Positions 188 to 49,369 of a stretch of DNA of 64,000 nt are shown here, piece by piece. The DNA is from a virus. The stretch is taken from IMG/VR virus record IMGVR_UViG_3300029288_006769, positions 122,367-186,366 of that record; one strand, 5' to 3'. Every line of letters begins with the position of its first letter. Position 1 is the first letter of the stretch. Below the pieces are notes generated by a model. It was given only the letters and a program-made list of their open reading frames with translations, made no database searches and was not told the origin of the DNA. Both the position numbers and the translations under genes were made by a program.

Positions 188-736
188 TTACATTAAACTG
201 AGACATTTCTTTATTCTTTCATCTAAATCTTTTTCTTTAATCTCTACTACATTTTGCTGTCCAAACATTTTAAAAATGCCCAATAAATCGGTATTAGATT
301 TCTGTCTCCATTGTGCATCAAAATGTAAGTCTGGTCTAACACCGTCATCCTTAGGCTCAACACTTGGATCTAGATGAAATATTATATCATATCTACTATT
401 AAGATTCAACAATCTCTTGAATAAATAATTATATGCTATCAAATCTTTAGGATTCTCGAATAGGACAAGATCCATTGCAAACAAAAAACCAAGATATATA
501 GGACTATCAGTTATCATAAAATCCGCCTGTTGTACGACACTGTCTTCCCATTCTATCTGTTTGCTAGTCACAATGATTTGTTCCCAAATGGTATCTATGG
601 ACCTATGCTTTGAAATATAACTACGGGCATACTCGCTGATTAGCTCGACATGTTTATCAATACATGCACTTGCTAAAGCTCTTGCTAATGTAGTTTTACC
701 CGAACCAGGTATGCCCGAGATGCCAATTCGCTTCAT
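188..736 (-). CDS. P-loop NTPase, NadR C-terminal-like ribosylnicotinamide kinase (AAA_28) candidate
   Basis: Walker A GISGIPGSGKTT; EYARSYI and FMITDSP segments resemble the NadR nicotinamide-riboside kinase domain. Confidence 0.4.
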   Translation of the reverse strand: MKRIGISGIPGSGKTTLARALASACIDKHVELISEYARSYISKHRSIDTIWEQIIVTSKQIEWEDSVVQQADFMITDSPIYLGFLFAMDLVLFENPKDLIAYNYLFKRLLNLNSRYDIIFHLDPSVEPKDDGVRPDLHFDAQWRQKSNTDLLGIFKMFGQQNVVEIKEKDLDERIKKCLSLM

Positions 737-1080
737 GGTAATTTAAAAACAAGGGTTTTACATTTAAATTCAGCTTGTACTTTTATATCTTTTGCAGGTT
801 GTTTTAATCCAAAAAACTTGAAAAAACCACGCACGTTTAAATAAGCATTCTTTTGATTTAACCCTCTTATAGACAATGGTGATTTATCAAAAGTAAGTCC
901 AAAAGTAACACCTGCTTCTTTTGTTTCGGAATCGAACCACACTTGTGCTACATGATCATTTCGTAATTGAAGTTTTAAGATAATTGAGCGGCTTAAAAAG
1001 AGTTTTTCTTGTGGAGTCAGTCTGACTGTATAAATAGCAATTTTTCTACGATAAGGTTGGTCAAACAATTTCCATGTCAT
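733..1080 (-). CDS. hypothetical protein
   Basis: ORF tightly packed with (overlapping) the downstream and upstream genes in the same orientation. Confidence 0.3.
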   Translation of the reverse strand: MTWKLFDQPYRRKIAIYTVRLTPQEKLFLSRSIILKLQLRNDHVAQVWFDSETKEAGVTFGLTFDKSPLSIRGLNQKNAYLNVRGFFKFFGLKQPAKDIKVQAEFKCKTLVFKLP

Positions 1081-1550
1081 TTAGGATACACCACGACAGA
1101 TTCATTTAAGAAAGTAACTTCTATCCCAGCTTGCTTAAATACATCTTCTGAAGCTGCTCCTTGATGGTATTTTTGCTTGCAAACAACACGTGCAATACCA
1201 ACCTGAACTATACTCATAGCGCATCTCATACAAGGCGTCATTGTACAATACAAAGTACCACCTTTGAGAGAAACACCAATATGTGCAGCTTGAAGTATTG
1301 CATTCATTTCAGCATGGATAGTCCTGTGACAATGTTCGGACTTTGTTCCATCCTGATGAACTACCGTTTCAAGTAAATGACCAACTTCAGAACAATCAGG
1401 AAACCCAGAAGGTGCCCCGACATAACCTGTCACCAAAATCCTGTTGTTTTTAGTAATGACACAACCAGATTTCCCTCGATCACACGTCGCTCGTAATCCA
1501 ATCGTATCGACTGTCAACATGAAATATTCATCCCAATTTGGCCGACTCAT
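1077..1550 (-). CDS. dCMP deaminase (cytidine/deoxycytidylate deaminase family)
   Basis: zinc-binding motifs HAEMNAI and PCxxC (TPCMRCA). Confidence 0.85.
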   Translation of the reverse strand: MSRPNWDEYFMLTVDTIGLRATCDRGKSGCVITKNNRILVTGYVGAPSGFPDCSEVGHLLETVVHQDGTKSEHCHRTIHAEMNAILQAAHIGVSLKGGTLYCTMTPCMRCAMSIVQVGIARVVCKQKYHQGAASEDVFKQAGIEVTFLNESVVVYPK

Positions 1551-4500
1551 ATACTCCTCTGCTTTCTAGAAATTAGTTTTGGTTTGCTTTCTTTGACTAT
1601 TTCGTTAACAGTCTCAGAATCTGCCACACGTTTTTTTCTAGAAATCATTTTAATGGGTTCACCAAGTTCTAATCTAATAGCATTCGTCTCTGTTAAAGTA
1701 GCAGGTGTATCGTTCTTGAACAATTCTGTAAGTATCTCTTGCCTTGCTCCTTTCATTTTTCTCGAAATCAGCTTAGGTTTTTTAGGTTCTGTTTGTTCTG
1801 TTATTTCGGGTTGTTTTTCTGTTTGCAGATTGAATTTGCTCAAAGCATCATATCCTTCAGTGTTCTTTATTTTTGTGATATCTGACAAATAAAAAACATG
1901 ATCAGAATATTTCTTGTTCTTTGCTTCTTCGAAATAAAGCTTACCTGAAACAAGATCGCCCTCTTCAATTTTCAAATCTTCTGCATCATTCAAAATACAA
2001 TCATCTATTCTTGTAGTGCCATCATAAATTGTTGCAAAATACATGATATACGGTTTTTGTGTTTTTTTGCCTATTCCAGCAAGTCTTCTAAACTTACTCA
2101 CAAAAACAATCATTGGAATTGCATTATTTCTACTCAAAGTCTTACCCTGAGCAGCAGCTTTTTCGACACCCTTTAAAGAATATTCTCTGTTTGTTGCTTC
2201 TTTCAAATCTTTTGAAACAATAAGACCTGTATGTTCAAATTGTTTTTGCAAGAAATTTGTCGTATCAATTTCTTCACCAATTTCTTTTTTGAACAACTCG
2301 ACTGTATCATCAAATTTAATTGCTTCCGAATAAATAAGAGCTTTAATCACTCTTTTATTTACCACTCTTCTTGTTACTCTACTCAAAAAATCTTTAAAAG
2401 AAGTATAAGGTTGATTTTCTTGGATATTTGTAGCAGCCTTAGACCCTACATCTTTTATATGCCCAAATGCATAACACAAAGAACCATCGGGTTTTATTCT
2501 AAACATATCAGCACCTGAATCGTTTATGTCAGGTTTATTTATCTTTACATTAAAACTCTTTTGAATTTCTGTTACATAATTCTGAAAAAGATTTACTTTT
2601 TTGCCGTCTTGCATTGCTTCAGTATTTTCTGTGTTAGAAAGAAGAGAAGCAAAATACTCATTAGGATAATATGTTCTCAAATACATCATTATATAAGCCA
2701 TCATAGCATAAGCGCAAGAATGGCTTCTATTAAACGAATATTTTGAAAAATTCTTCATTGTATCCATTATTTCTTCAATTCTTTTATCGTCATAATTTGT
2801 ATTCTTATGACAACCTGCTCTAAACTTGTCCATCATATGATTAAACTCAGTATAATCTGTTTTGCCTTTAAATAGTAACTTGAAGACATGTCGAGACTCA
2901 TCAGCTTCAGACAAAGTAAAGCCACCAAGTTCTTGGAATACTCTCATTGAAGATTCCTGGTACAGCATCATTCCATAAGAGTCAGCAAGAACACGTTCAA
3001 ACGGATCCTGTTTTGCTTTCTCGTAATCATAATTTTCTTTATTTTTGAGATACATTTCTAAACCGCCTGCTTGTATAACGGCAGGACGATACAAAGCGTT
3101 TATAGCAACAAGATCGACAAATTTTTCAGGTTTTGCTCTTTTGACGAACTTCGTAATGTTCTTTCCTTCAAACTGAAAAATGCTAAATGTTCTGGCTTGA
3201 TTGAATTGTTCAAGTACTTTGGGATCATCATCATTATCTATAATATCTTGTAATTTAACTTTGCCTTGTAATAATTTCAATGTGTCACTGATAATAGTGC
3301 AAGCATTTAAACCAAGAATATCAAATTTCATTAGACCAGCATCAGTCATTAATCGAGTATCACCACCTTCTGGGTACCCTGTTGCTATATTGTCACTAAT
3401 CCGCATAATAGGGATGAATCGTTCTAGATTATCAGGTGCAATAATAACACCACCTGCATGCATTGAATAATGACGGTTTTTCCCGACTAAAACTCTTGCA
3501 ATATCAAATTGTTTTTTATGTTCTTCAATAAAGTTCTTTGCCCAGTCACCTTCCAATGCAATCATTTTTTGAATTGCATCATCGAACACATCATCGTCAT
3601 TTTCAAGGCATTTAGAAAGTCTATCGACACTGTCTTTTTTTTCTGTCCCAAAATAAACTCTAAACGTATCCCTTATTGCATTCTTAATCCCGAATGTGCC
3701 AAATGAAATTACATGAGAAACAGAATTAATCCCATATTTACCCTTTAAATACTCTTCAATCTTGTATCTTGTTTTAGAATCAAAATCAAGATCAATATCA
3801 GGAGGATCTAATCTTTTTTCATTTAGAAAGCGTTCGAAATAGAGCCCATATTTTATAGGATCAATTTTTGTAATGCCAAGTAAATGAACCACTAAGCTAC
3901 CGGCCCCGCTTCCACGGCCGCAGCCTACAAGTACGTCATGTGTCTCGGCATAATTGACAATGTCAGCAACAATCAAGAAGTAATCTTCCATTCTTTTGAA
4001 TTTGATTGTTTCAAGTTCTGATTTTACTCTAGCCACATAATCAGGTCTATTGTCCCAACCTTTTTCTTTCAATGCTTCAAATGCTTTTCTCTCAAGAATT
4101 TCATATGAATTGTCAGCAAACTTAGGCATAATAACTTCTGGCGCCCGAGTAAGCTTTACTTTTTCGATTTTGCTGTCTATTTCTAGTGTGCGATCTAAAC
4201 ATTGATTAATAAATTCTAGATCATATCCAAGAAATTGAGCTTCAGCAATGATATCCTCTCGTTTTTTGAGCCATAGATTTCTTGACTTATAAACTCTTTT
4301 TTGCCAACTATCGTCTTGAAATGAACCTTTAGAGTTTATAAGTTTCATTACATCATGTACTTCAGCATGTTCTGGTTTCAGATAATGTGTATCTGTTGTC
4401 CATATTAATTTTACGCCAAGACGTTTGTGATTATTTATAGCCCATTGATTAAATGCTGTCTGATCAGCCATTTGAATTTCCATAATTTCAATATAGAAAT

Positions 4501-5008
4501 CCTCTCCAAAAGCTGACTTCATATAATTGATAAATTCAATAGCTTCTGCTTCTTTGTTTTCTAAAACAAGTTTGGGTATTCTTCCACCCATACAAGCTGA
4601 TGAAACAATTAAATTTTTATTGTATTGAACAAGATCTTCATAAAGGATAATTGGTTTGTAGTAGAATGTATTTCTCATAGCTTGACCAAGTAACCAGCAA
4701 AGATCTAAATATCCTTGATAATTTTTAGCAAGTAGGACTAAGTGATCACGCTCTCTTTTTTCTTCTTTGTCATCACTTTCAAATTCTTTTTTGAAAGCGC
4801 AATAAGCTTCAAGTCCAATAATAGATTTTATCCCAGCTTTATTAGCTACTTGATTGAAATAGAGAGAGGCGCATAGATTACCATGATCAGTTACACAAAT
4901 AGAGGGATAATTATTTTCTTTTGCCCATTTGACATATTCATCTACTCCGAGTAGAGCATCTCCATTTGAGAAGTCAGTATGTATATGCAGCGGTAAATAA
5001 TGATTCAT
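1547..5008 (-). CDS. dnaE: DNA polymerase III alpha subunit (DnaE-type, N-terminal PHP domain)
   Basis: 1153 aa; N-terminal PHP motif HLHIHTDFSNGDAL...VTDHGN; size and layout typical of DnaE. Confidence 0.9.
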   Translation of the reverse strand: MNHYLPLHIHTDFSNGDALLGVDEYVKWAKENNYPSICVTDHGNLCASLYFNQVANKAGIKSIIGLEAYCAFKKEFESDDKEEKRERDHLVLLAKNYQGYLDLCWLLGQAMRNTFYYKPIILYEDLVQYNKNLIVSSACMGGRIPKLVLENKEAEAIEFINYMKSAFGEDFYIEIMEIQMADQTAFNQWAINNHKRLGVKLIWTTDTHYLKPEHAEVHDVMKLINSKGSFQDDSWQKRVYKSRNLWLKKREDIIAEAQFLGYDLEFINQCLDRTLEIDSKIEKVKLTRAPEVIMPKFADNSYEILERKAFEALKEKGWDNRPDYVARVKSELETIKFKRMEDYFLIVADIVNYAETHDVLVGCGRGSGAGSLVVHLLGITKIDPIKYGLYFERFLNEKRLDPPDIDLDFDSKTRYKIEEYLKGKYGINSVSHVISFGTFGIKNAIRDTFRVYFGTEKKDSVDRLSKCLENDDDVFDDAIQKMIALEGDWAKNFIEEHKKQFDIARVLVGKNRHYSMHAGGVIIAPDNLERFIPIMRISDNIATGYPEGGDTRLMTDAGLMKFDILGLNACTIISDTLKLLQGKVKLQDIIDNDDDPKVLEQFNQARTFSIFQFEGKNITKFVKRAKPEKFVDLVAINALYRPAVIQAGGLEMYLKNKENYDYEKAKQDPFERVLADSYGMMLYQESSMRVFQELGGFTLSEADESRHVFKLLFKGKTDYTEFNHMMDKFRAGCHKNTNYDDKRIEEIMDTMKNFSKYSFNRSHSCAYAMMAYIMMYLRTYYPNEYFASLLSNTENTEAMQDGKKVNLFQNYVTEIQKSFNVKINKPDINDSGADMFRIKPDGSLCYAFGHIKDVGSKAATNIQENQPYTSFKDFLSRVTRRVVNKRVIKALIYSEAIKFDDTVELFKKEIGEEIDTTNFLQKQFEHTGLIVSKDLKEATNREYSLKGVEKAAAQGKTLSRNNAIPMIVFVSKFRRLAGIGKKTQKPYIMYFATIYDGTTRIDDCILNDAEDLKIEEGDLVSGKLYFEEAKNKKYSDHVFYLSDITKIKNTEGYDALSKFNLQTEKQPEITEQTEPKKPKLISRKMKGARQEILTELFKNDTPATLTETNAIRLELGEPIKMISRKKRVADSETVNEIVKESKPKLISRKQRSI

Positions 5009-5383
5009 TTATACTCCAGCTATTGCTTTAAATTTTATATTGTCTTGTTTAATATCAGGTTTTGGTTGTTCTTCAGGTGAGAGTGGTGGCATAGGGAGTC
5101 GCGACATTCCCATAATTTGTCTTGCTCTTTCTATCTGTCTTGCTTTTGATTCTATAAAAGATTGTTGTCTTTGTCTTTCAGCTTCTAAAGCATCGTGTAT
5201 TTGTATTGCTGAATCAATATAATCTACATATCGTTCTGGATCTCTCAAAACAGTATTCAAGCACGTCTGATGATAATATTGAAATGTAGTTGTATAACCA
5301 GGGTGTTCAACACGTGACAACGAATCGCCACCACATTTACAAAAAAAACATGTTCTGAAGATCCTAAATAAATCAACCGACAT
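5009..5383 (-). CDS. paralog family member 1 (FRIFxxCxxC...YHxxCL zinc-ribbon-like N-terminus)
   Basis: shares an N-terminal motif with the two following ORFs (FRIFRTCFFCKCGGDSLSRV...YYHQTCL). Confidence 0.4.
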   Translation of the reverse strand: MSVDLFRIFRTCFFCKCGGDSLSRVEHPGYTTTFQYYHQTCLNTVLRDPERYVDYIDSAIQIHDALEAERQRQQSFIESKARQIERARQIMGMSRLPMPPLSPEEQPKPDIKQDNIKFKAIAGV

Positions 5384-5716
5384 TCAAGTTCCATTGAATA
5401 TTTGTTTAAATTTTACTAATTCTTCGCTTTTTAAAACTTCTTCAATTGCTTCTTGTTGAACATCTTTAATCCCTTGTAAAGATACAAATTGTTCGCACTG
5501 AAGTTGATGAGCATCACTTATTAATTGGTCATAAACCATTAATGCTTTTTTGATTTTTTTCAAATTATTTTGCGGATCATCAAGAACTCTTTGAAGACAG
5601 TCTTTATGGTAGTAAATATATTTGCCTGCAAAATTTATTCTAGACAAATTATCTTGACTATCGCATACAAAGCATGACTTAAATATTCTAAAAATATCAG
5701 GCATTATCATCTCCAA
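5384..5716 (-). CDS. paralog family member 2 (zinc-ribbon-like N-terminus)
   Basis: IFRIFKSCFVCDSQDNLSRI...YYHKDCL motif shared with neighbours. Confidence 0.4.
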   Translation of the reverse strand: MEMIMPDIFRIFKSCFVCDSQDNLSRINFAGKYIYYHKDCLQRVLDDPQNNLKKIKKALMVYDQLISDAHQLQCEQFVSLQGIKDVQQEAIEEVLKSEELVKFKQIFNGT

Positions 5717-6296
5717 ATATTTTCTTCATCTTGTTTTGTTTATCAATTTTTTTGGGTAGTTCATTGTTTTCTTGTTGTTTACTATTTATAGGTGTTTTTT
5801 TAATATCTATTCTAAACGTAGGAGTCGTTCCAATTCCTACAGGCGATGTAGTTACTGTAGTCATATTCCATGTATAATCATCTGCATAATTTGTAAAATG
5901 AGCTAAATTTTGTGCTAATCTTGACTCGCCTGCTTCTTCTAAAGCTAATCGTATTTGATCATATCTTGTTTCAATTTCTTGTGTTGTTTGCATTTCTTGT
6001 TGGACATCAGATTGTCTTCGAAGTTCTTCTACATGTTGCAAATTTTGTTGTTGTTGCCCGAGAACTAATTGTGTAATTTCATGCGCAATAGTTCTTAAAC
6101 CTTGAGGAATTTCTTGTGTCTGCATTGCTCTCAACAAACAAGAATGATGATAACTAATATAGGGTGGTCCTACGTGGCGTAATCTTTCTGATAATGAGAT
6201 ATGTGTTCTTCTATTACAAAAAACGCATTTTCTGAATATTCTTAGAAAATCAGGCATTTTTCTTCTTCTTTTTAATCTAATTAAAATTTTTTGCAT
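5697..6296 (-). CDS. paralog family member 3 (zinc-ribbon-like N-terminus, Gln-rich coiled-coil C-terminus)
   Basis: FLRIFRKCVFCNRRTHISLS...YHHSCL motif shared with neighbours. Confidence 0.4.
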   Translation of the reverse strand: MQKILIRLKRRRKMPDFLRIFRKCVFCNRRTHISLSERLRHVGPPYISYHHSCLLRAMQTQEIPQGLRTIAHEITQLVLGQQQQNLQHVEELRRQSDVQQEMQTTQEIETRYDQIRLALEEAGESRLAQNLAHFTNYADDYTWNMTTVTTSPVGIGTTPTFRIDIKKTPINSKQQENNELPKKIDKQNKMKKIFGDDNA

Positions 6297-6383
6297 TTGC
6301 TTTTGTCGACAGACTTAGAGCCACAATTTGGACATTTACCATGCTCACCCCTACGAGCAGCATCGCAAGTGTCACACCAAAAC

Positions 6384-6776
6384 TTATGTTTTGTCGCTTG
6401 CTTCGATTTGATTCTGTTCTGCTTTTTTAAGGACATTTACAACTCTTTCAAAATCAAAATTAACAATCTCTTCAGAAATTAAAATTTGTTTGTCTTTATT
6501 TACTAGAGCACAAACATCGCCTTCATTATATGTCTCTATTGAAAGTTCTGCATCTTTCCATAAAAATTTTAAATAAACGCCACTTTCAATAGTACAAGTT
6601 ACTGTTATGGGCTCCAAAGCATAATCTTGAAATAAATAAAAACATACGCCAAACGCATTAAATTTTGCTGTTCTATTAGGTGGTACAGCTCCTTGCTCTC
6701 TCCAATGTTCTGGTAGTTTAAGATTTTCTATTTTGGAATACAAAACTGAAAGAGTTTCAAAATCTGTTATATGCAT
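6384..6776 (-). CDS. hypothetical protein
   Basis: ORF in the operon-like minus-strand block. Confidence 0.3.
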   Translation of the reverse strand: MHITDFETLSVLYSKIENLKLPEHWREQGAVPPNRTAKFNAFGVCFYLFQDYALEPITVTCTIESGVYLKFLWKDAELSIETYNEGDVCALVNKDKQILISEEIVNFDFERVVNVLKKAEQNQIEASDKT

Positions 6777-6782
6777 TTTCTC

Positions 6783-7037
6783 TCATTTCAAAAATAACAT
6801 TGCAATCCAAGTAATAATAGTAACGGGCAAACTTAACTGTCCAAATGCCGGTACAAGTCCAATCAATGCGCCATGCCACCATAAAACAACTGGATCTTTG
6901 TCTGCAAACACAAGCCAAGTATTGATTGCATAGGGCCAGCAAAACGCACCAATAAAAGCGCTAATACCAAGTCCTATACTTATTGTTCCTCCACAACCTA
7001 AACCCATAGCTGCTAAAGTCGCTCTCAAACTAGACAT
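6783..7037 (-). CDS. small hydrophobic/membrane protein
   Basis: 84 aa, almost entirely hydrophobic segments. Confidence 0.3.
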   Translation of the reverse strand: MSSLRATLAAMGLGCGGTISIGLGISAFIGAFCWPYAINTWLVFADKDPVVLWWHGALIGLVPAFGQLSLPVTIITWIAMLFLK

Positions 7038-7048
7038 CTAAAACCTCC

Positions 7049-7558
7049 TCAAATATATTTGTGAAGTGAGAACACAAAAACTCTCATATAACCTTCTTCA
7101 ATAAAATCTTCATATTTTTCTTTTAGTCTCTTGAACACTTCTTTATAACACAAATTGAACGTCTGACAATCAAAAACAAAGTTCCTGTCATAATCCATAC
7201 TTCTGACATAAACATTCATGCAATATTTTCCATCTCTTACATAATGATGGAAATAAGCAATACAATGGTTGTCAGCATCATCATAATTATTGACAAATGC
7301 CCCTTGCCTCGAATTAAAATCAATATTTAAATACCCAAACATATCGATTGATCTACGTATTACAAATTGTCGCTCAATTTCTTCTTCGGGTACTGGTACA
7401 GGTGCTAATTCAAGACAATCTTCAGGTTGCAAACAAAATTCAAAATTAGTTATTTCACGAGTGTCTCTATTTCCCCCTATTCGAATTGATTCATAAAGCC
7501 CAGCTTCGAATTGTCTGTCAATTCTACTTTTCCAATTCTCAATATTCATTTTCAACAT
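7049..7558 (-). CDS. hypothetical protein
   Basis: 169 aa ORF, no motif recognised. Confidence 0.3.
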   Translation of the reverse strand: MLKMNIENWKSRIDRQFEAGLYESIRIGGNRDTREITNFEFCLQPEDCLELAPVPVPEEEIERQFVIRRSIDMFGYLNIDFNSRQGAFVNNYDDADNHCIAYFHHYVRDGKYCMNVYVRSMDYDRNFVFDCQTFNLCYKEVFKRLKEKYEDFIEEGYMRVFVFSLHKYI

Positions 7559-7624
7559 GATGTTTATTCCTTTTTCTATGTTTCTACGACCCAGTCTAGC
7601 CTATTTGTGTATATAACCTAATGG

Positions 7625-8554
7625 TTACACCTTTTTAAGCATAAAAGCCCCTACAGCGGTATAGTCGCTGTGTACAAAGGGAGCGCAAATCATTTTAGCA
7701 AATTTTGGTGGCCAATTTTTATAAGCGTCTTGCAGAGCTTCTTCAATTACTATTGGGTACCCAAGTCTTTCTGTATTTGTAATTGCTTTTTCAAATGTAA
7801 GTAATGGAGAAAAATTTGCTATTTGAAAATAATCTTGTATCATATTTTCAAATTGAAATTTATCCCAGACATAATTATGGTCCCAATGATACAAATCTCT
7901 AAATTCATGCTCAAAAACTAACGTGATATAGAGATAACCACCCGGCTTCAAAACTCTTTGAATCTCAGAAACACATTGTTCTGCATAGAAAAACTTGTCT
8001 TTACAATGATCAAATGCTTCTTGGAAATAAACAAGATCAAAAGAAGAATCTTTGAAATTAAGTAGTTTATTGAAATTACCTGAACAAAAATTGCTTACAA
8101 AAAGATTGTCTTCTTCTTTGAAAGCATCTAAACCATCAACAATAAAAGAAAAATCAAAATCGACTCCCCAATATTCTTTGAATTTGAATCCATTACGTTG
8201 AAATAAACGAGAAACATGTCCATTGTTACAACCTAATTCAAGAACGACTTTATCAGACTTTACTGGGATCAATCTATCAATCATTTTTAAGGCTGAGAAA
8301 TTGTAGAGATAAAATGGAAGTGAATGTGAATTGTAAACATTCCCATAAGCTATTTTTTCGGCTGCTTCATTTGTAGAACAATTTCCTTTTTTTATCATTA
8401 TAGTTTCAAAATTTTCAAGTTCTATCGAATTAAGAAACAATTTGTATTTTTCAAAATTACACATCTTAATTCTTGAAGGTTGTAAAAAAGGCGAGTTCTG
8501 TTGAACAGACACAAATCTATTTGTATTTATCAGATTACGTTCTCTATTTATCAT
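7625..8554 (-). CDS. class I SAM-dependent methyltransferase
   Basis: motif I VLELGCNNG and LKPGGYLYI. Confidence 0.6.
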   Translation of the reverse strand: MINRERNLINTNRFVSVQQNSPFLQPSRIKMCNFEKYKLFLNSIELENFETIMIKKGNCSTNEAAEKIAYGNVYNSHSLPFYLYNFSALKMIDRLIPVKSDKVVLELGCNNGHVSRLFQRNGFKFKEYWGVDFDFSFIVDGLDAFKEEDNLFVSNFCSGNFNKLLNFKDSSFDLVYFQEAFDHCKDKFFYAEQCVSEIQRVLKPGGYLYITLVFEHEFRDLYHWDHNYVWDKFQFENMIQDYFQIANFSPLLTFEKAITNTERLGYPIVIEEALQDAYKNWPPKFAKMICAPFVHSDYTAVGAFMLKKV

Positions 8555-8557
8555 ATG

Positions 8558-9046
8558 TCACCTGTTCGAAAAATGTTCGCTTGCATCTTCTAATGTTATC
8601 ATATCTAAAACAGGGTCTACTTTTTCTTTAAGTTTTTGAGCAACAGTTTCAATAGAAGCTGAATTATCGATTTGAATAAATCTATCTGAATAATCTTTAA
8701 ATTTTTTCTTGCATTCTTGGATGATTTGTTCGTAAATTTTTATGTGTTGTTTGAATGTCTGCAAACTTGATACATGTTTTTCGTTTCTAGCCAAAGCTCT
8801 TCCAAGCAAAACTTTAGAGTCGACTTTAATATAAACAAAACATGCGCCAAGATCCAAGAACTTTTCTATTAGTTTAAAATTTGTTTCTTTTCTTGATGTT
8901 TCTGTTCTATTATAGATTGTATCATAGACTATATTGCAGATTGGCGATCTTGGACTCATATAATATTTATAATCATATAGTTTTGCAAGTTCATGCATCA
9001 GAGAGTCTTTGCCAGAACAGTCTGGACCTAAAAATAAAACTATCAT
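8558..9046 (-). CDS. P-loop nucleotide/nucleoside kinase (dNMP-kinase-like)
   Basis: N-terminal Walker A LFLGPDCSGKDS; small 162-aa kinase fold. Confidence 0.5.
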   Translation of the reverse strand: MIVLFLGPDCSGKDSLMHELAKLYDYKYYMSPRSPICNIVYDTIYNRTETSRKETNFKLIEKFLDLGACFVYIKVDSKVLLGRALARNEKHVSSLQTFKQHIKIYEQIIQECKKKFKDYSDRFIQIDNSASIETVAQKLKEKVDPVLDMITLEDASEHFSNR

Positions 9047-10092
9047 AACCAGTAAGGCTCCATTCCTATATTATTGATTATGCTTTCTATTGTCATTCTT
9101 ATACCAGTTTCTAAAGGGATATACCCTTGATTACTTGCAAAATCTATCTTACAATAACGAAGTTTATCGTCAGACATGTTATGATAATGCAAGTAATCTC
9201 TTGTCCCATCAAAATCAATCCAATCATCTATATGTCTATAAAAAACATCTGGGACGCAAATTCCTCGTACTGCAAATCTGTAAGCAACAAATTCAAAAAG
9301 CTCGAACCAAGTTTTTGAATTTGTATGATTTTCGCCTATATTAAAAACAGGGCGATGTGAAGCACCACCAACGCAAGGAATTGTGTTGTCAAGCAATCTT
9401 TGTGCAAAACTCAAAATACATGTTGCTATATTTTCGACTCTCGTATAAGATTTTGCAGTTCCTTTATTTAACAAAATTTTAAGTTTATGGTTTGCTGGTT
9501 GAGTGATATTCTTGTACATGATATAGATAAATTTTGTTAGAGCACTATGCAAATCATCAGGATAATTTCCAAATCCAAAGACAGGACGTAGTACCAGATG
9601 TTTTGTGTGACATGTATTTTTTACTATCAATTCTCCAGCATATTTGGTAATACCATAAAGAGTTTGGGGATTGATTTTTGTTTCTTCTGTCATTGGTTTC
9701 CTGGGCCCATAATCAGAAGGATCAAGTATAGCTGTAGTCGACAAATAAATAAGCGGTATTTCATATTTATTACAAAGATCAACTATATTCTGCGTACCGA
9801 CGACGTTCGTCCTTATAGCAAGACTAGGGTCCGAAGAACAATAATCAGTTCCAACAAATGCGCCTGAATGAATTACTAGATCTAAATTGCCCCAGGGCGC
9901 TCTTATCAGGTGAGACGTATCAAGGAAATCAAGTTCAGGTTTCCTTACTTTAAAACTTTGGTGCGTTTTGAATGAGTCTAATAGTGTGTGTTCTAGTTGT
10001 GTATTGACAACTTCAAAACCAAAATTCTTTGCTATCCTTTGCATTTGCATTGGAATTGTGCCCGATTCTCCAGTTATTAAAATCTTTTTCAT
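9043..10092 (-). CDS. NAD-dependent epimerase/dehydratase (extended SDR)
   Basis: Rossmann ILITGESGTIP and catalytic YxxxK (YGITK). Confidence 0.75.
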   Translation of the reverse strand: MKKILITGESGTIPMQMQRIAKNFGFEVVNTQLEHTLLDSFKTHQSFKVRKPELDFLDTSHLIRAPWGNLDLVIHSGAFVGTDYCSSDPSLAIRTNVVGTQNIVDLCNKYEIPLIYLSTTAILDPSDYGPRKPMTEETKINPQTLYGITKYAGELIVKNTCHTKHLVLRPVFGFGNYPDDLHSALTKFIYIMYKNITQPANHKLKILLNKGTAKSYTRVENIATCILSFAQRLLDNTIPCVGGASHRPVFNIGENHTNSKTWFELFEFVAYRFAVRGICVPDVFYRHIDDWIDFDGTRDYLHYHNMSDDKLRYCKIDFASNQGYIPLETGIRMTIESIINNIGMEPYWL

Positions 10093-10673
10093 TTTTGCTC
10101 CTTGCAGGCTTGTATTATAAAAGCTTTATATTCCTCTGGTGTGCTTCTCTGATAAGAAAACACATAGCTTGGATGCCATATAGATCTAATAGGTATTTTT
10201 ATATTGTTCTCTAGACATAGATCTAATAGTATTTCAAAAACTTGTCTGCCCATAGCAATAATGATATGAGGTTTCAAGACATTAATTTCTTCTAATAAAA
10301 AAGAGAAGCAAGCTCGAGCACAAGAATTATTTATCGCATTAGTAGATGTAGAGCAGTGAATTACATTGTCGCAAAATATCTCGTCAAACATACCTGTTTC
10401 TTTTAAGAGGTTGTTAAATTTTTCACCAGGCCCAGGGCTACCATTTACTCCTCCAAATGCGTATTCATGTCCAGCAAATCGGTTGTATGAAGGATTCATC
10501 CCGATAAACATAAAGCGGCACTTTTTAGTGCCGCCTCTCCAACCATAAAGTTTTCCAAAACCTTTAGAAATATCTTTTTTGTTTTCTTCTAGATTACATA
10601 ACTCACACTTAGTACAGACTTGAATTTTTTCATTAATCTTTTTTAAGCCGTTTTCTACTTTTGGACTGAACAT
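10089..10673 (-). CDS. uracil-DNA glycosylase superfamily protein (family 4-like)
   Basis: N-terminal CTKCELC, GMNPS...GSPGPG...LL motif region, C-terminal IWHPS motif. Confidence 0.5.
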   Translation of the reverse strand: MFSPKVENGLKKINEKIQVCTKCELCNLEENKKDISKGFGKLYGWRGGTKKCRFMFIGMNPSYNRFAGHEYAFGGVNGSPGPGEKFNNLLKETGMFDEIFCDNVIHCSTSTNAINNSCARACFSFLLEEINVLKPHIIIAMGRQVFEILLDLCLENNIKIPIRSIWHPSYVFSYQRSTPEEYKAFIIQACKEQK

Positions 10674-16941: not shown

Positions 16942-17046
16942 AGTTTCCTCCTTTGATGTTCTAAATTATATCAAGTGAGGAAAATAAATTCACAAGTTTG
17001 TATTGGATTTATTTTTAAATATAAAAAACTTAAAAGAGGAGAAAAA

Positions 17047-17601
17047 ATGCTTAAAATCGACAATATTGATGTATTAACTCGTTGGACAATGGTAATTGAT
17101 GCTGCAAAAACTACTATTGGCAAGATAGCATCTAAGAAAGAACCTACATCGCATTGGAAGAAAATGATACTTCTTGCAGAGCATTCACCCATAAGAATTC
17201 TTTTAGTGAAGTGGAAATGGGTTGAAATAAAATATTGGGTGAGCGTCCATTTTGTAAGACATAAAATTGGGATAGAACATTTTGTCAAATCGCAAAGATC
17301 AGACCGTACAGGCAATAATCGAGAAAATTCTCCCCAGAATTCTCTAGTCGATCATGAGTGTGTTGCGAATGCTCAATCTATTATTAATATTTCAAGAAAA
17401 AGGCTTTGCAACAAAGCATCTAAAGAAACACGCGAAGCTTGGCAAATATTCTTGGATAATCTAAAATTAACAGAACCAGAACTTGTAAGCGTGTGTGTGA
17501 AAGAATGTTTATATAGAGGGCACTGTTACGAATTTGATTCGTGTGGTTATGTGAACACAGAAGATTATGCAATAGAACTTAATAATTATAGGTCGTTATA
17601 G
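17047..17601 (+). CDS. ThyX-like protein (flavin-dependent thymidylate synthase family, short/divergent)
   Basis: AAGAGGAG RBS before Met at 17047. HSPIRILLVKW...SVHFVRHKIGIEHFVKSQRS aligns with the T. maritima ThyX segment HETPFEH...RQWFRHRIASYNELSGRY, which contains the RHR...S..R motif. Confidence 0.45.
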   Translation: MLKIDNIDVLTRWTMVIDAAKTTIGKIASKKEPTSHWKKMILLAEHSPIRILLVKWKWVEIKYWVSVHFVRHKIGIEHFVKSQRSDRTGNNRENSPQNSLVDHECVANAQSIINISRKRLCNKASKETREAWQIFLDNLKLTEPELVSVCVKECLYRGHCYEFDSCGYVNTEDYAIELNNYRSL

Positions 17602-41879: not shown

Positions 41880-42722
41880 TCAATTTTTTGTCTTTTTTTT
41901 GCATCTTGTTATATAAAAATCTAACATATAAGTTTTTATCCATTTGTTGACTTTTTGAGTTTTTATTTTTAAAAGCTTTGAAACCTCACTTACCCAACCA
42001 TTTTTTGAAAAATCTATAGAACTATTCTCAATTATCTTTATTTTCTCAAATTGCTTAAGTAATTGTAATAAAGATCTTATCTTAGATTTCTGCTGTAATT
42101 TAAGTTTTTTAGAATTATCTCTAGCTATTCTTAAAGTTTTGTTTTTAAGCATATGATTTTCAAGAGATTTCTGAACATACTCATATTTATCCAAACTACT
42201 TAACAAATCTAAGAATGAATTGATTTTTTCTTGATTTATTTCGTTATAAGCAATTCTTACGACTTTCCAACCTTTCAATAACAAATGCTTATCTTTCTCT
42301 AAGTCATGTTCAAATCTAGTATTCCCATGCGAAAAATGTGCTGGTCCATCAAGTTCAATAGCAAGTTTTATATTGACAAATGCAAAATCAATAAAATATG
42401 GAAATTCAGCATATTCACTTACAATGTCATATTTTTCGTTTAAGTTAAATTTCAAAATAACTTTGTCTATAAACCATTGCTCTAAAGAACTTGGGATCTG
42501 TTTACTTCTTTTTTCCCAAGCTGTTTTACCTGTCCGCTTTTTAAGATATTCAAATCTTGCTTTTCTAATCTTATTTTTTGTTACAGTTGTGTGTTTAAAA
42601 ATTTCTGGATGTTTCAAGTGCAACAACTTAAAGGCTTCAGATAGAGATCTACATTTATCTCTTAGAGCTATTGTTACTAGATCTTTGGGATAACCTATTT
42701 TTATAATTTCACCAGAAGACAT
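41880..42722 (-). CDS. DUF559/Vsr-like endonuclease-domain protein (homing-endonuclease-like)
   Basis: YFIDFAFVNIKLAIELDG...KGWKVVRI C-terminal restriction-endonuclease-like fold signature. Confidence 0.5.
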   Translation of the reverse strand: MSSGEIIKIGYPKDLVTIALRDKCRSLSEAFKLLHLKHPEIFKHTTVTKNKIRKARFEYLKKRTGKTAWEKRSKQIPSSLEQWFIDKVILKFNLNEKYDIVSEYAEFPYFIDFAFVNIKLAIELDGPAHFSHGNTRFEHDLEKDKHLLLKGWKVVRIAYNEINQEKINSFLDLLSSLDKYEYVQKSLENHMLKNKTLRIARDNSKKLKLQQKSKIRSLLQLLKQFEKIKIIENSSIDFSKNGWVSEVSKLLKIKTQKVNKWIKTYMLDFYITRCKKKTKN

Positions 42723-44409: not shown

Positions 44410-45279
44410 TTAGACTCCTTTAGCAAGATAATCCCAAACTTTTTGTTCGTTTATAGCAACCAGAACATAATCACCATTTTCATCAAGTCTCGATCCCCAT
44501 TCACCTTTTTCACTGTAAGGTTTTGCTCTGACCCATGTCCCAATTTCTGGATGCAAATGACATACCGCAGCAGTAGGATCATGAAATTTTTTCCCATCAC
44601 TACCAAGTTTAAATCTCCACGTCATACCTTCGCGGAATAATTCAGCAGCTCGATCTTTTGGGGGAACACTTGTTATGTATTTATGAGTATCAAGATTATA
44701 CATCATATAATGACAAACATTTTTACCAACAAAATGTCTTTCTTTGATATCCATTTTTAAGAAGTTAAAAGCACCCTTTTTGTCACCATTTAAATTGAAA
44801 GTTGGGACTGTTTGTTTTCCTTTGAATTTATCAAGCATTTTCACAGTAATACCATGTGTCATATAACCAATAAAACCACCTTGCATAGTTGCACAATTTA
44901 ATTGTACGGGCAAATTATAATGGCCTAAATTTTGAAGAGGTCCACATCCGAAAAAATCAACATCATCATCAACAAGAACACGTCTGATAACTTCATTTGC
45001 AAGAATTGCGTTTGAAGAATAATATGGAAATTTATATTGATCAAGCATTGCTTTATGAATGTTTGTTGGATGTTCTTTTCTTCTTCCAAGTAAGGGGACA
45101 CCTATGAGAACATCTTTCTTTCCCAGAATTTGAAGTAAAAAATCCACAATAGCGATTTGCATCTCATCACCCGGGCTAATAAGAATACCTTTAATATTCA
45201 CCCCAGCTGAAAATAAATAACATAAAGCAAAAAAATCATCTGGGTCATGACCTATATCTGTTTCGACTAATAGATTCAT
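44410..45279 (-). CDS. inosine-uridine-preferring nucleoside hydrolase family protein
   Basis: N-terminal ETDIGHDPDDFFAL matches the IUNH DTDPGIDDAxAL Asp cluster. Confidence 0.5.
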   Translation of the reverse strand: MNLLVETDIGHDPDDFFALCYLFSAGVNIKGILISPGDEMQIAIVDFLLQILGKKDVLIGVPLLGRRKEHPTNIHKAMLDQYKFPYYSSNAILANEVIRRVLVDDDVDFFGCGPLQNLGHYNLPVQLNCATMQGGFIGYMTHGITVKMLDKFKGKQTVPTFNLNGDKKGAFNFLKMDIKERHFVGKNVCHYMMYNLDTHKYITSVPPKDRAAELFREGMTWRFKLGSDGKKFHDPTAAVCHLHPEIGTWVRAKPYSEKGEWGSRLDENGDYVLVAINEQKVWDYLAKGV

Positions 45280-45625: not shown

Positions 45626-46295
45626 TTAAAGTATTACATTTTTTCTCTCCTTTTTTGTTTTAGAAATTTTCTCCCTTACTTCTTTTCTCTTGGAAACATT
45701 GTTTTCACCACTTATTAAAATTTTTCTTTGTGGATTATTTTTCCAAAAATTTAAGACTGCTTTTGAAATATTTTGTTTTTGTTCTATTGTTCTTTTTCTT
45801 CCTCTTAAAATAAATTTAGGTTTGCCTTTTTGTTTTTTAGACGCATGCGACATTTTTTGTCTAGTAATTTCTGTCGGTTTTCTACCAGACATTGCAAGAC
45901 TCACTTTTTTCTTGCGCTGTTCTGTCCAAGGAGATTTTATAAAACAATCTTTTTTCCCATTCGCAGTATCTTCTTTATACTTACTTCTAATTTCTTCTCT
46001 TCGCGGATTATTTGAAAAACAATCGCCCCCATCACCACCTTTTGTTATATCCAACAGGTGCTCTTGAATTAAGAAACTCTATCCAATATTTTTCTCTTTC
46101 ATTTAGCTGATCTACTTGACATTCTTCTATAATATCTTTTCGAAAATTTTCTTGGCCATATTTTATTATTGCTTTTCGTATAAGTATACCTGATCCATAA
46201 TATTGAATATTATACTTTAATTCTTTCCCGATATAAATTTTGCCATTCAAAAGATTTGTAATTTTATAAATTACGCTTAAACTTGCCATAATCAT
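45626..46295 (-). pseudogene. GIY-YIG homing endonuclease split by a frameshift (catalytic part 46032-46295, NUMOD3-like part 45626-46054)
   Basis: VIYKITNLLNGKIYIGK...YYGSG...GYN ends at a stop; the overlapping frame continues ...KGGDGGD plus NUMOD3 repeats; the intact paralog at 17613-18392 reads GYNLTEGGEGGD across this point. Confidence 0.6.
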
Positions 46296-47311
46296 CTTTT
46301 TCTAAGTGTTCGTTCATAATCTTCAAAACGTATTTTTGCGATTTTTGAACGCTGTTCTGTTCGAACTACAACTCCTTCAGGTTTTCCCAATGCATCATTT
46401 TCAAGCAAAGCGTTTGACATGCCCGGGAGCAGATTTTTCAACCAATCATAAGTCCCTTGAATGGTTTGTGGTGGACATGCTCCAATAATAGAAGGCACTA
46501 TTAGACATCTTATATCTGCTGCTACACTTGCAATTGTTCTGACTCCAACAAAATTTTGTCCCCCATTATCTCTCCAAGCAGCTATTTTTTCTATGGGCAA
46601 ATCAAGTAAATCTTCAAACTCTTTTGCTTCCATCATTATGACATCAAACAACCTGAAACCAAGTTTCCCTGTTTTTGTATAATTTTTTGCCGTTCCTGCT
46701 TTACCCCCATAAACTTCCCCAAATAATACAAAAACAGATTGTTCAAGTTGGTCCCAGTAAATTCTTCTTGCATTGTCAGCCACAGTTTGAATTGTATCAA
46801 CAATATCTAATGTAGGATTATGAATCCAATCTCCAAAACCATAAAGAAGTTCTTCACGAGAACCAATTAGATATGTCCCTTTAGGAAACAAAATAATACG
46901 AGCATTTGTACCATCAATTTTCTCAGAAAGAAAAATTTCGTCATCTGCTGAAAAAGATACAAGAACTTCTTCTTTCAAAGAACCTCTATCCCCAAGAGCA
47001 TGATATGTAAGAATACTTGGGTATTTTGTAGCCGAATTGATTTTTTTCAAATCAAAAGCTCGCATATTCACACAATATTTACCATAATCAGGATTATGTT
47101 TCTTCATAATGTCGTATGTTGCCGGTCTTACTTTCCAGCCTACATTGTCGCAATTACCACAAGCTATACTCATGCTCATAGCAGCTACATCACCTGGCAT
47201 AATTTCTTCGCTATTACAATTAGAACAAGTCATTACTACAAATGCTGACGGTGGACAAATCTTACCCTCATGCTTTATACCACAAAAAATACAATGCTTA
47301 GCTTCACTCAT
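46292..47311 (-). CDS. ATP-dependent RNA ligase (Rnl2-like nucleotidyltransferase) with N-terminal zinc ribbon
   Basis: motif I KIDGTN, motif III FGEVYG, motif V EGVVVR; N-terminal CxxC...CxxC. Confidence 0.55.
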   Translation of the reverse strand: MSEAKHCIFCGIKHEGKICPPSAFVVMTCSNCNSEEIMPGDVAAMSMSIACGNCDNVGWKVRPATYDIMKKHNPDYGKYCVNMRAFDLKKINSATKYPSILTYHALGDRGSLKEEVLVSFSADDEIFLSEKIDGTNARIILFPKGTYLIGSREELLYGFGDWIHNPTLDIVDTIQTVADNARRIYWDQLEQSVFVLFGEVYGGKAGTAKNYTKTGKLGFRLFDVIMMEAKEFEDLLDLPIEKIAAWRDNGGQNFVGVRTIASVAADIRCLIVPSIIGACPPQTIQGTYDWLKNLLPGMSNALLENDALGKPEGVVVRTEQRSKIAKIRFEDYERTLRKR

Positions 47312-48077
47312 TCTCTTTATCCCCTGCAGCCATAGCCTTTATGACTTCATTCAACACCGGTGCTTGACATTCTCCTGGTTTTGTAGCAGTAAGCTCTACT
47401 CCTGCATTTTCTGCAAAAAACATATCACCCTGATTGAAACGTAGAGCATCAGCTTGCTTGCACTTCTCTATCCATTCTTTAAAACCATTTTCATAATCAT
47501 CGGTTAGACTGGAAAGCCATTTGAAAAATTCTTCCAAAGTCGAAGGAAGTACGCCCACCCAATCAGAACCATAGTCATAAGGGCCCTGTGTTTGCTCATC
47601 CCAATAATCTATATGTTCTGATTCTCCATTTTCAAGATAACGATCTATATAATGTTTTCCTGTATGATCACTACCAGAAAACCAAACTTCGTCATCTTTG
47701 GGCTCGCGTCCAAGTGATTTAAGAACTTCAGTCACTTTATCTTTATAGCCTGCACAACCTATGCCAGCAAAACGATGATAAACAGGTTTTTCAGGTTCTT
47801 TTTTATAATCAGTACAACTTGCATAAATAAAAATGCCGTTTTGAGGACCTCTGATTGATACAATATCAAATCCTGCAAGTTGTACATCTCCTGAATTTAT
47901 TGCTGCAATTGTTGGCTTTGTAAAATCATGTTCTTCATGCCACATTTCTTCGCTCGAAACATAAGCCCAATTTTTATAAATTGAAATTGAAGATTTTAAT
48001 TTGTAATGATTGAACGTGCCATTACAAGCTTGAGCGTCAGAATTAAAAGCTAAACAATCCCAATTTGAGAGTGCCAT
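47304..48077 (-). CDS. hypothetical protein
   Basis: ORF. Confidence 0.3.
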   Translation of the reverse strand: MALSNWDCLAFNSDAQACNGTFNHYKLKSSISIYKNWAYVSSEEMWHEEHDFTKPTIAAINSGDVQLAGFDIVSIRGPQNGIFIYASCTDYKKEPEKPVYHRFAGIGCAGYKDKVTEVLKSLGREPKDDEVWFSGSDHTGKHYIDRYLENGESEHIDYWDEQTQGPYDYGSDWVGVLPSTLEEFFKWLSSLTDDYENGFKEWIEKCKQADALRFNQGDMFFAENAGVELTATKPGECQAPVLNEVIKAMAAGDKENE

Positions 48078-48098
48078 TAGAACATACTCCTTAAGCCA

Positions 48099-48923
48099 TC
48101 AATCCACGAATTTTACATTTGCCCTTGCACGTGCTTTGGATTCAGTATTGACAAGTACTTTATGCCATACGCTTCCAAGATTCACAGTAGCATGTTCTTC
48201 ATGCGAAATTTTGCCCTTGGCATACACATTGGGATCAGCCATCATAGAACGGTAACGCTTTGCACTATCAGGTTGCTCTTTTAAGAGCTTTTGATAATCT
48301 TTCACTTCAATAACGTTACTCCCAAGAACATAAACTTGTCTTCCACCTACTCTGTACAAAAATTCAGCATAGTGAAAGTGAGAACCTCCACCTCTCATCG
48401 GTTCGTTCTTCCAGACTTTTGTCAAGTTCCCTTTGGGCGGCTCAAAATTCGGTTGAGGAACAAACATGAATTCGCCTTGACGGTGAATTTTCTTTCCCGA
48501 CTTCAAAAGACGGTGTCTCTTATGCGCATTCTTTTTGTTGACACCCTCTTTCGATTCAATGTCAATAAGTTCTTTGGGTTTTAAAGCTTGTTTGGCACCA
48601 ATTACCGTAGTAACTCTTGAAGATTCAGGGATAGCACAAGTGAACCAGTGACGTTCATCATGTCCACAAAGAAATTTCGACTTGATTTCGCTTGTCTTAT
48701 CGCCTTTTCTGTTGATAACAGGTACTTTTGTCATCAAAAGCAAATGTCTGTCAGCTTTTTGAGCATCAAGAATCAACATTTCTATTTCTTTTGTGACTTG
48801 AAGCTCAAAATACTCGCCTTCACTGTCTCTTCTGACATCAATAGAAAAACCATCTCTACGTGGCTCAATGACTTTTACTCGAGCCCCGATTGCTTCGAAT
48901 TTCTTTTCGATTGTTGTTGTCAT
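48099..48923 (-). CDS. hypothetical protein
   Basis: ORF. Confidence 0.3.
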   Translation of the reverse strand: MTTTIEKKFEAIGARVKVIEPRRDGFSIDVRRDSEGEYFELQVTKEIEMLILDAQKADRHLLLMTKVPVINRKGDKTSEIKSKFLCGHDERHWFTCAIPESSRVTTVIGAKQALKPKELIDIESKEGVNKKNAHKRHRLLKSGKKIHRQGEFMFVPQPNFEPPKGNLTKVWKNEPMRGGGSHFHYAEFLYRVGGRQVYVLGSNVIEVKDYQKLLKEQPDSAKRYRSMMADPNVYAKGKISHEEHATVNLGSVWHKVLVNTESKARARANVKFVD

Positions 48924-49369
48924 ATAACCTCTAAATAAAGCGTGCTTCCAATAAATTTTTCAAGAACTTTACCATGATCAAAAGCAAGATCAGGTAAATT
49001 ATTTATATCAAAAAATTCAAGTTTCCTTGCATCATCTTTAGCTTTAGGCTCACCAGTGCATCTATGTACATAATAAACATGATCTATCACATGTCCTCTT
49101 GGATCTCTTTTGGGATCAGAATTGACCATGAATAATTCAAGATGTCTGGGCTCCACAACTAAATTTGTTTCTTCATAAAACTCCCTTGCTCCTGCAACCT
49201 CCAAACTTTCTTGATCACAGTTCAAAAATCCACCCGGTAATGCCCACATACCAACAAAGGGTTCATGATCTCTCTGAATCAACAAAATTTTATTTGTTTT
49301 GTTTGTAGTCATGTAAATCAAACTAGCAGTCGAAGCTGCATTTTTAAAATCATGAATATCAGTTGGCAT
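48920..49369 (-). CDS. NUDIX hydrolase
   Basis: Nudix box GGFLNCDQESLEVAGAREFYEETN. Confidence 0.8.
   Translation of the reverse strand: MPTDIHDFKNAASTASLIYMTTNKTNKILLIQRDHEPFVGMWALPGGFLNCDQESLEVAGAREFYEETNLVVEPRHLELFMVNSDPKRDPRGHVIDHVYYVHRCTGEPKAKDDARKLEFFDINNLPDLAFDHGKVLEKFIGSTLYLEVI

Follow-up and report, generated by a model that had tools for sequence, protein, structure and literature searches.

A partial, dispersed set of putative NAD+ salvage genes, including a long-form nicotinamidase, in a huge phage genome

Nicotinamide adenine dinucleotide (NAD+) is a main battleground between bacteria and phages, and three phage pathways that rebuild it have been demonstrated experimentally, none of which proceeds via nicotinic acid. 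NARP1 consists of a Prs-like synthetase of ADP-ribose pyrophosphate (Adps) and the Nampt-like enzyme Namat, and NARP2 combines Nampt with a nicotinamide mononucleotide adenylyltransferase (NMNAT)-Nudix enzyme (NadV and NatV of KVP40); the common aim of both is to rebuild NAD+ from nicotinamide and/or ADP-ribose (ADPR). The NARP paper had already pointed to NadR/PnuC operons, and NARP3, for which experimental evidence was published in 2026, comprises a PnuC-like transporter and the NadR-like ribosylnicotinamide kinase (RNK)-NMNAT enzyme Bas30_86, in which mutation of E230 or D275 abolishes NARP3 function (Sci Adv; PMC13464706). An earlier survey covered NadR, NadM and NadV in phages (PMC9503650), and sets of Preiss-Handler genes (pncB-nadD-nadE) and of genes for the salvage of nicotinamide riboside (NR; nadR-nadM-pnuC) were catalogued in 2024 in the 'NAD-jumbo phages' (Microbiome; PMC11662467). 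In the library of papers that we searched, none was found in which the nicotinic acid route was tested as a counter-defense. Here we analyze a stretch of 64,000 nucleotides (hereafter the window) of the IMG/VR virus record IMGVR_UViG_3300029288_006769 (positions 122,367 to 186,366 of the record), which covers about one seventh of a huge-phage genome of ~422 kb and encodes four putative enzymes of NAD+ metabolism. This phage adds a further member to the NAD-making jumbo phages described before, not a pathway of a new kind.

An annotation made previously from the letters of the window alone (hereafter the original prediction) had listed a glutamine-dependent NAD+ synthetase (NadE), a Nudix hydrolase and, tentatively, a NadR-like kinase and a PncA-like nicotinamidase as scattered genes. 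All four open reading frames (ORFs) are present exactly where they had been placed, on the minus strand (182, 313, 560 and 149 amino acids (aa) in the order of Table 1), and they indeed occupy four separate neighborhoods across 49 kb. The family-level assignments, including the two tentative ones, hold in profile, structure and residue tests; the possibility, raised at the time, that profile searches would reduce the kinase and the nicotinamidase to a generic AAA ATPase and a generic isochorismatase was not borne out.

NadE, the confident call of the original prediction, is also the clearest case here. The protein matches the NCBIfam model NF010588 with 612.6 bits, above the equivalog cut-off of 479, covering positions 1-556, and both expected domains are found by Pfam (NAD_synthase, 7.6e-70; CN_hydrolase, 2.1e-27), in addition to a match to phrog_36784 (2.2e-122). 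The triad motifs fPEl, rKrlLP and vICEDlW and the P-loop SGGIDS are all present. Judging by these sequence features, the product is, beyond doubt, a glutamine-dependent NadE. Enzymes of this family catalyze the final step of NAD+ synthesis, the conversion of nicotinic acid adenine dinucleotide (NaAD) to NAD+.

The identification of the nicotinamidase required more than a single profile. The score of the 313-aa protein against the Pfam family Isochorismatase (20.9 bits) lies under the cut-off of 27, because of ~100 extra residues and sequence divergence, and neither PHROG nor NCBIfam yielded a match. The protein nevertheless belongs to a large family (673 matches) with members of ~307-320 aa, that is, a form of ~310 aa compared with the ~180-215 aa of the classical enzymes. 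In an alignment of 60 homologs, the catalytic triad (D51, K197, C248), the metal site (D96/H98/H163), W160 and the WPxH motif are all invariant. The structures of Pnc1 and PncA indicate that the metal site formed by Asp-x-His and the His of WPxHC sets nicotinamidases apart from other isochorismatase-like hydrolases. A profile of the 60-sequence family, compared with the PDB, gave yeast Pnc1 (3.8e-8) and the PncA proteins of Mycobacterium tuberculosis and Pyrococcus horikoshii as top matches; in these alignments, C248 falls in the region of the catalytic Cys of Pnc1 and M. tuberculosis PncA, and the WPxH segment is aligned with 'WPVHC' of Pnc1 and 'WPPHC' of the M. tuberculosis protein. The best 21 PDB matches detected by Foldseek with the AlphaFold model of the protein (pLDDT 96.2) are all nicotinamidases, and a homolog from Chloroflexota is encoded next to an NrtR-type NAD regulator. 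Thus residues, family profile and predicted fold all point to a long-form enzyme of the nicotinamidase family, which is predicted to convert nicotinamide to nicotinic acid. We also considered that the protein might be a second vWA-like or a generic isochorismatase-like member of a TerY-P-type triad (see below); in view of residues, profile and fold, we dropped this idea.

The strongest functional evidence is provided by the gene neighborhoods in related phages. In the window, the nicotinamidase gene is the third gene of a four-gene module (18445-22806, minus strand), preceded by genes for a PP2C-type protein phosphatase and a 624-aa protein-kinase-like protein and followed by a gene for a vWA-domain protein (Table 1). 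The same order is seen in five further loci of huge phages (L024, L018, L026, L020/L021 and L023), in the last of which extra small ORFs are present in the module and the vWA gene lies ~1.7 kb farther downstream. The vWA gene is located directly downstream of the nicotinamidase gene in L024, L018, L026 and L020/L021, as well as in L022, where this pair alone is present, and in LR756500.1 (L108), a published phage genome in which the nicotinamidase, vWA and kinase-like genes come in another order. Orthologs of the 624-aa protein, which itself shows weak PDB matches to the activation-segment region of ROCK and PKA, are encoded beside the nicotinamidase at five further phage loci (37-56% identity), with a 25% match in LR756500.1. 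The nicotinamidases of these loci are 34-72% identical to the window copy, and the genes that flank them vary; bacterial homologs of the nicotinamidase occur without the module.

Genes of NAD+ synthesis recur in the vicinity of this module. In the 466-kb sister phage (L018), the gene order is PncB, PP2C, kinase, nicotinamidase, vWA and NadE, followed by the NAD+-dependent DNA ligase LigA and a PARP-like protein encoded next to NadE; in L026, PncB is encoded 1.7 kb upstream of the module; in L023, NadE, NadD and PncB lie 4 kb downstream of it; and in LR756500.1, NadE is found 3.3 kb from the nicotinamidase. Another locus (L031) encodes, in one uninterrupted stretch, a NadM-Nudix fusion, PncB, NadE and a canonical PncA. 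Because the nicotinamidase stands beside PncB, NadD and NadE in sister phages, we read the nicotinamidase and NadE of the window as parts of the Preiss-Handler route, and the neighborhoods support the view that these are pieces of a toolkit that is clustered in the relatives and dispersed here. More generally, enzymes of the Preiss-Handler route recur in huge phages, and the long-form nicotinamidase, not remarked on before, is one of them.

The 182-aa protein is a stand-alone P-loop kinase. It matches the Pfam family AAA_28, which contains the NadR kinase domain (COG3172), with 52.5 bits against a cut-off of 27 and over the entire profile (positions 1-164 of 164), so that the tentative NadR-like assignment stands at the level of the family; the JGI name of the protein family is 'nicotinamide riboside kinase'. 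When the family profile was compared with the PDB, RNK domains came first, led by 9x6f (2.6e-7), the RNK domain of Bas30_86, with which the phage protein shares homology along its entire length, and by Lactococcus lactis NadR (6gye, 3.2e-5), with deoxynucleoside kinases next (3e-4). The Walker A motif, the TDS equivalent of Walker B and the DDGxR lid are aligned with the motifs of L. lactis NadR, and E64 and D117 are aligned with E230 and D275 of Bas30_86, a mapping that uses an inferred numbering offset of +6. We put the odds that the kinase acts on NR, producing nicotinamide mononucleotide (NMN) from NR and ATP, at a little over even. The alternative that this protein is a phage thymidylate kinase was also considered; it is weakened by the fact that NadR comes first in every comparison and by the presence of a separate gene for a thymidylate-kinase-like P-loop protein (8558-9046, minus strand; phrog_761, 1.2e-10), so that there is no need for the 182-aa kinase to fill that role.

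The Nudix hydrolase had been called correctly (Pfam NUDIX, 64.3 bits with a cut-off of 21.1), and its affinities can be specified further. The best NCBIfam models represent the Nudix portions of NMNAT/Nudix bifunctional enzymes and the ADPR-responsive repressor NtrR, and the PDB matches include NrtR (3gz5, 3gz8, 2fml) and NadM-Nudix (2qjt, 2qjo) proteins, the relatives including AraR-type regulators. The protein contains the Nudix box REFYEETNL, a Pro at position +16 past the box, and the motifs SDPxRDPRG and LAFDH, the last three of which we take to be marks of ADPR pyrophosphatases; from these motifs, an ADPR pyrophosphatase that cleaves ADPR to AMP and ribose-5-phosphate is predicted. Homologs of this protein adjoin PncB/NadE in many metagenome loci, and bacterial NrtR regulators are probably among these homologs. 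In two loci that carry a PncB of the phage clade, at least one of them on a contig of huge-phage size, we observed a full-length NrtR-like protein with Nudix and winged helix domains (L028, 17997-18749; 441,848-bp contig Ga0315284_10000005) and the above NadM-Nudix fusion (L031, 6748-7785), both encoded next to PncB and NadE; elements of this type may also bring their own NAD+ regulator. A small ORF upstream of the Nudix gene in the window was considered as a decayed NMNAT and rejected, having no HxGH motif.

We propose, with a probability of roughly 0.6, that this huge phage carries a partial, dispersed NAD+ salvage toolkit in which the nicotinamidase and NadE are parts of the Preiss-Handler route, and that the set keeps NAD+ available. 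In the proposed scheme, the phage nicotinamidase would convert nicotinamide to nicotinic acid, the first Preiss-Handler step from nicotinamide; PncB would then produce nicotinic acid mononucleotide (NaMN) and NadD would convert it to NaAD, both enzymes presumably being supplied from elsewhere in the phage genome or by the host; and the phage NadE would complete the route by conversion of NaAD to NAD+. NadD is normally an essential host enzyme. With less certainty, the NadR-kinase-domain protein would probably convert NR to NMN, and the Nudix enzyme would probably split ADPR into AMP and ribose-5-phosphate, which can return to phosphoribosyl pyrophosphate (PRPP). As a whole, the set would drive both products of NAD+ cleavage and external riboside back toward NAD+, and the pay-off could be the supply of the phage NAD+-dependent ligase, resistance to NAD+-depleting immunity, or both. 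The ligase in question, a 653-aa LigA-type protein with a BRCT domain, is encoded ~9 kb past the left end of the window (L005, 19680-20549; contig Ga0378408_0000018); this gene, together with PARP in the sister phages, indicates that the phage itself consumes NAD+. An ATP-ligase-like gene is also encoded by the phage.

The search for the remaining pathway genes, which the original prediction had recommended for PncB, NadD and Nampt, covered the window and the adjoining 10 kb at either end, out of the ~422-kb genome, and none of the three was found there. The same is true of NMNAT, PnuC and PRPP synthetase. In particular, a Pfam scan of all window ORFs of at least 80 aa gave no NAPRTase/Nampt, cytidylyltransferase-type NMNAT (CTP_transf_like), PnuC (NMN_transporter) or PRPP synthetase, and the HxGH motif of NMNAT does not occur in any of the six frames of the window. 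A topoisomerase, ligases and a flotillin-like protein are encoded in the flanks, which are devoid of genes of NAD synthesis. When the PncB of the 466-kb sister phage was used as a query, none of the members of the resulting phage-clade PncB clusters came from a contig of 422 or 424 kb, the contig metadata being incomplete. A metagenome scan with an alignment of phage PncB proteins recovered neither the contig of this phage nor that of the query itself, so that the scanned collection probably lacks these samples.

How this phage compares with the described systems follows from these results. Like the NAD-jumbo phages, it combines a genome larger than 200 kb (contig Ga0378408_0000018 alone measures 422,226 bp) with Preiss-Handler-type genes, among which nadE and pncA are both mentioned for that group, a nadR-like kinase and NAD+ consumers such as a ligase (PMC11662467). 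However, NAD-jumbo phages are defined by a complete, often clustered phage-encoded pathway and come from animal guts, whereas here the sequence covered encodes a kinase domain on its own and, of the Preiss-Handler steps, the first and the last, all dispersed, and the phage comes from environmental and engineered-system metagenomes. With NARP3 it shares the RNK domain, including the two residues aligned with E230 and D275; unlike the bifunctional RNK-NMNAT enzyme, the phage protein consists of this domain only, and, instead of forming a two-gene operon with an adjacent PnuC, the transporter being absent from the window and flanks, its gene is coupled to replication genes. The original prediction was correct in that the gene combination differs from those of NARP1 and NARP2: the window has no matches to Pribosyltran, Pribosyl_synth or NAPRTase, the families by which NARP1 would be recognized, and the window and flanks encode neither a Nampt/NAPRTase-family protein nor an NMNAT, the components of NARP2, although the Nudix protein has relatives in the Nudix domains of NadM-type NMNAT-Nudix enzymes. 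Moreover, neither of these two pathways includes an amidation, whereas the chemistry via nicotinic acid needs amidation by NadE. The further suggestion of a distinct phage strategy for NAD+ replenishment does not survive, because combined Preiss-Handler and NR sets have been published (PMC11662467) and the NR route is that of NARP3 (PMC13464706). Compared with bacterial Preiss-Handler salvage (PncA-PncB-NadD-NadE, often controlled by NrtR), the families for the first and last steps are the same; however, the Nudix protein, although in the same clade as NrtR, is devoid of the NrtR DNA-binding domain, and the phage nicotinamidase differs in being of the long form and embedded in the PP2C/kinase/vWA module. 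The result for the window is thus mostly confirmatory: the gene calls were right, the concept had been published before, and the sequence covered does not contain a complete pathway.

Several observations weigh against the proposed toolkit. The four genes are not co-located, no NAD+ route is complete within the window and its flanks, and the substrates of all four proteins are predictions from sequence. Translational coupling links the kinase gene to the genes for dCMP deaminase and DnaE and to an ORF of 115 aa, a context of replication and deoxynucleotide (dNTP) supply; the best PHROG of the kinase carries the annotation 'thymidylate kinase'; and the neighbors of its homologs in distant huge phages are uninformative, the neighborhoods in phages of 589 and 373 kb containing no NAD genes, with the exception of one ADP-ribosylglycohydrolase. 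The Nudix gene, for its part, is coupled to an RNA ligase gene and two genes of no assigned family (257 and 274 aa, with no match in Pfam, PHROGs, NCBIfam or PADLOC), and its product may have a role linked to RNA repair. These contexts suit a coincidental collection, in which NadE and perhaps the nicotinamidase alone would serve NAD+ while the AAA_28 kinase contributes to dNTP supply and the Nudix enzyme to RNA repair or nucleotide housekeeping; with RNK domains leading the profile comparisons of the kinase and NrtR and NadM-Nudix proteins those of the Nudix enzyme, we hold this to be doubtful. We likewise regard as tentative, and on balance unlikely, the idea of a dedicated counter-defense, in which the genes would serve specifically to restore NAD+ cleaved by systems such as Thoeris, DSR and SIR2-HerA, as NARP1-3 do, but via nicotinic acid intermediates. 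Immune NADases yield two products, precisely those on which the nicotinamidase and the ADPR pyrophosphatase are predicted to act; NARP1-3 demonstrate that phages deploy NAD+ rebuilding against SIR2-HerA and related systems, and the same idea was put forward for the NAD-jumbo phages (PMC11662467). Yet the route is incomplete in the sequence covered, the genes are dispersed, unlike the compact NARP1-3 operons, and a supply of NAD+ to phage enzymes, given that the phage LigA and the sister-phage PARP consume it, explains the genes equally well. Should the genes indeed protect against NAD+-depleting immunity, they would represent a fourth, amidation-dependent route.

The module suggests yet another role for the nicotinamidase, namely, that this amidohydrolase is primarily an output or target of signaling by the PP2C phosphatase, the kinase-like protein and the vWA protein and acts on a substrate other than free nicotinamide, such as NMN, NR or a signal containing nicotinamide. 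The order of the four genes persists while the nicotinamidases share only 47-72% identity and the flanks differ, three of the genes are still together in LR756500.1 at 34% identity, the protein exceeds classical PncA by ~100 residues, and an NMN deamidase activity would join the kinase to NadE without PncB. All the same, the catalytic and metal residues of nicotinamidases are all invariant, PncB is the immediate neighbor of the module in L018 and L026, bacterial homologs do without the module, and synteny in related phages can come from shared descent alone; we therefore consider this role improbable, and favor the toolkit reading. A somewhat less improbable, still speculative notion is that the module is a phosphorylation-controlled NAD+ salvage switch specific to huge phages or else that the long nicotinamidase takes a new substrate (NMN or NR). 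In the latter case, the lone RNK kinase and NadE would be joined in a route that needs only NadD from the host, and either version, if true, would add a regulatory or enzymatic layer undescribed for NARP1-3 or bacterial salvage. The tight and widely conserved link of the nicotinamidase to the kinase/phosphatase/vWA trio is the one feature of this locus that could lead somewhere new. In 2012, Anantharaman, Iyer and Aravind reportedly described a TerY-P triad of a vWA protein, a PP2C phosphatase and a Ser/Thr kinase, in which the same three domain types are said to stand side by side as they do in the phage module; the phage modules differ in that the nicotinamidase is inserted between the kinase and vWA genes, NAD+ synthesis genes are located nearby, and there are no Ter genes. 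The PADLOC models, which represent defense and not anti-defense systems, did not match the nicotinamidase or the PP2C and vWA proteins of the module; the kinase-like protein, the 182-aa kinase and the Nudix enzyme obtained weak generic matches only. NCBIfam had no match for the PP2C, kinase-like and vWA proteins.

Table 1. Coordinates of the genes discussed in the text (positions in the 64,000-nucleotide window)
Feature	Position	Strand	Supporting features
NadR-type P-loop kinase, stand-alone, RNK domain family, 182 aa	188-736	-	Pfam AAA_28
Long-form nicotinamidase-family amidohydrolase, 313 aa (module gene 3)	19244-20185	-	Residues, family profile, fold, neighbors in relatives
Glutamine-dependent NAD+ synthetase NadE, 560 aa	26520-28202	-	N-terminal nitrilase-type glutaminase domain and NAD synthetase domain
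Nudix hydrolase, NadM-Nudix/NrtR clade, 149 aa	48920-49369	-	Pfam, NCBIfam, PDB, motifs
PP2C-type protein phosphatase (module gene 1)	22042-22806	-	Pfam PP2C_2, 9.8e-15
Protein-kinase-like protein, 624 aa (module gene 2)	20199-22073	-	Pfam Pkinase, 1e-5, 25.5 bits, under cut-off of 31.7
vWA-domain protein (last module gene)	18445-19224	-	Pfam VWA, 5.1e-8; intact MIDAS, DGSLS...T...D motif
Nudix gene cluster	46292-49369	-	RNA ligase (PF09414), 257-aa and 274-aa ORFs, Nudix last; 4- and 8-nucleotide overlaps
dTTP synthesis: dCMP deaminase	1077-1550	-	
dTTP synthesis: thymidylate-kinase-like P-loop protein	8558-9046	-	
dTTP synthesis: ThyX	14380-15378	-	
dTTP synthesis: dUTPase_2/MazG-like	24326-24706	-	
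Homing-endonuclease-type genes (GIY-YIG/NUMOD3, HNH, DUF559/Vsr-like)	16975-18392	+	
Homing-endonuclease-type genes (same types)	41880-42722, 45626-46295, 50138-50692, 52395-53327, 59768-60526, 61480-62085	-	
928-aa protein	28455-31241	-	N-terminal hydrophobic segment, Ig-like Big_9/PKD repeats, C-terminal T9SS type A sorting domain near threshold (20.7 bits, cut-off 23)
289-aa protein	44410-45279	-	Weak inosine-uridine nucleoside hydrolase match over nearly the whole model, 26.2 bits, cut-off 34.2
98-aa pilin-like protein	63223-63519	-	Prepilin-type N-terminal cleavage/methylation motif, TIGR02532, 30.3 bits

The genome to which the window belongs can be traced in other data sets. Positions 1-10736 of the window are 100% identical to the JGI metagenome contig Ga0378408_0000018, and the final 1,750 bases (62251-64000) are 100% identical to the opposite end of the same contig. 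The window thus bridges the two ends of the contig, and the genome is apparently circular or terminally redundant, with a size of ~422-424 kb; the contig belongs to the IMG metagenome 3300037067, and a second copy measures 424,144 bp. Pieces of the same genome are deposited in the NCBI metagenome-assembled genome GCA_028717785.1 under the label 'Candidatus Nanoarchaeia archaeon', probably because a huge phage was mis-binned. With few exceptions, the genes of the window are encoded on the minus strand, the G+C content is ~34%, and the Pfam scan detected content typical of huge phages, including DnaE, SSB, ParB, ThyX, dCMP deaminase, uracil-DNA glycosylase, RNA ligase and many homing endonucleases (HNH, GIY-YIG and DUF559). 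Among annotated sequences, NadE and the nicotinamidase have their closest relatives in published 'uncultured phage' genomes of 462-595 kb. A megablast comparison of 11 kb with 50,697 phage records returned zero matches, and a scan of IMG/VR using NadE found a single relative but not the contig of this phage.

Several other features of the window deserve mention. The genes of the homing endonuclease type are unusually dense, and the two such genes on the plus strand break the otherwise all-minus array just downstream of the vWA gene. The four genes of dTTP synthesis are dispersed through the window. Immediately upstream of NadE is the gene for the 928-aa protein with Big_9/PKD repeats, the near-threshold T9SS (type IX secretion system) sorting domain of which hints at what may be a host from Bacteroidota or the FCB group. 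The 289-aa protein, for which the PDB and PHROG gave no match, has an N-terminal motif resembling DxDxxxDD (ETDIGHDPDD) and, going by its weak resemblance to nucleoside hydrolases, could act on nucleosides, conceivably also on NR.

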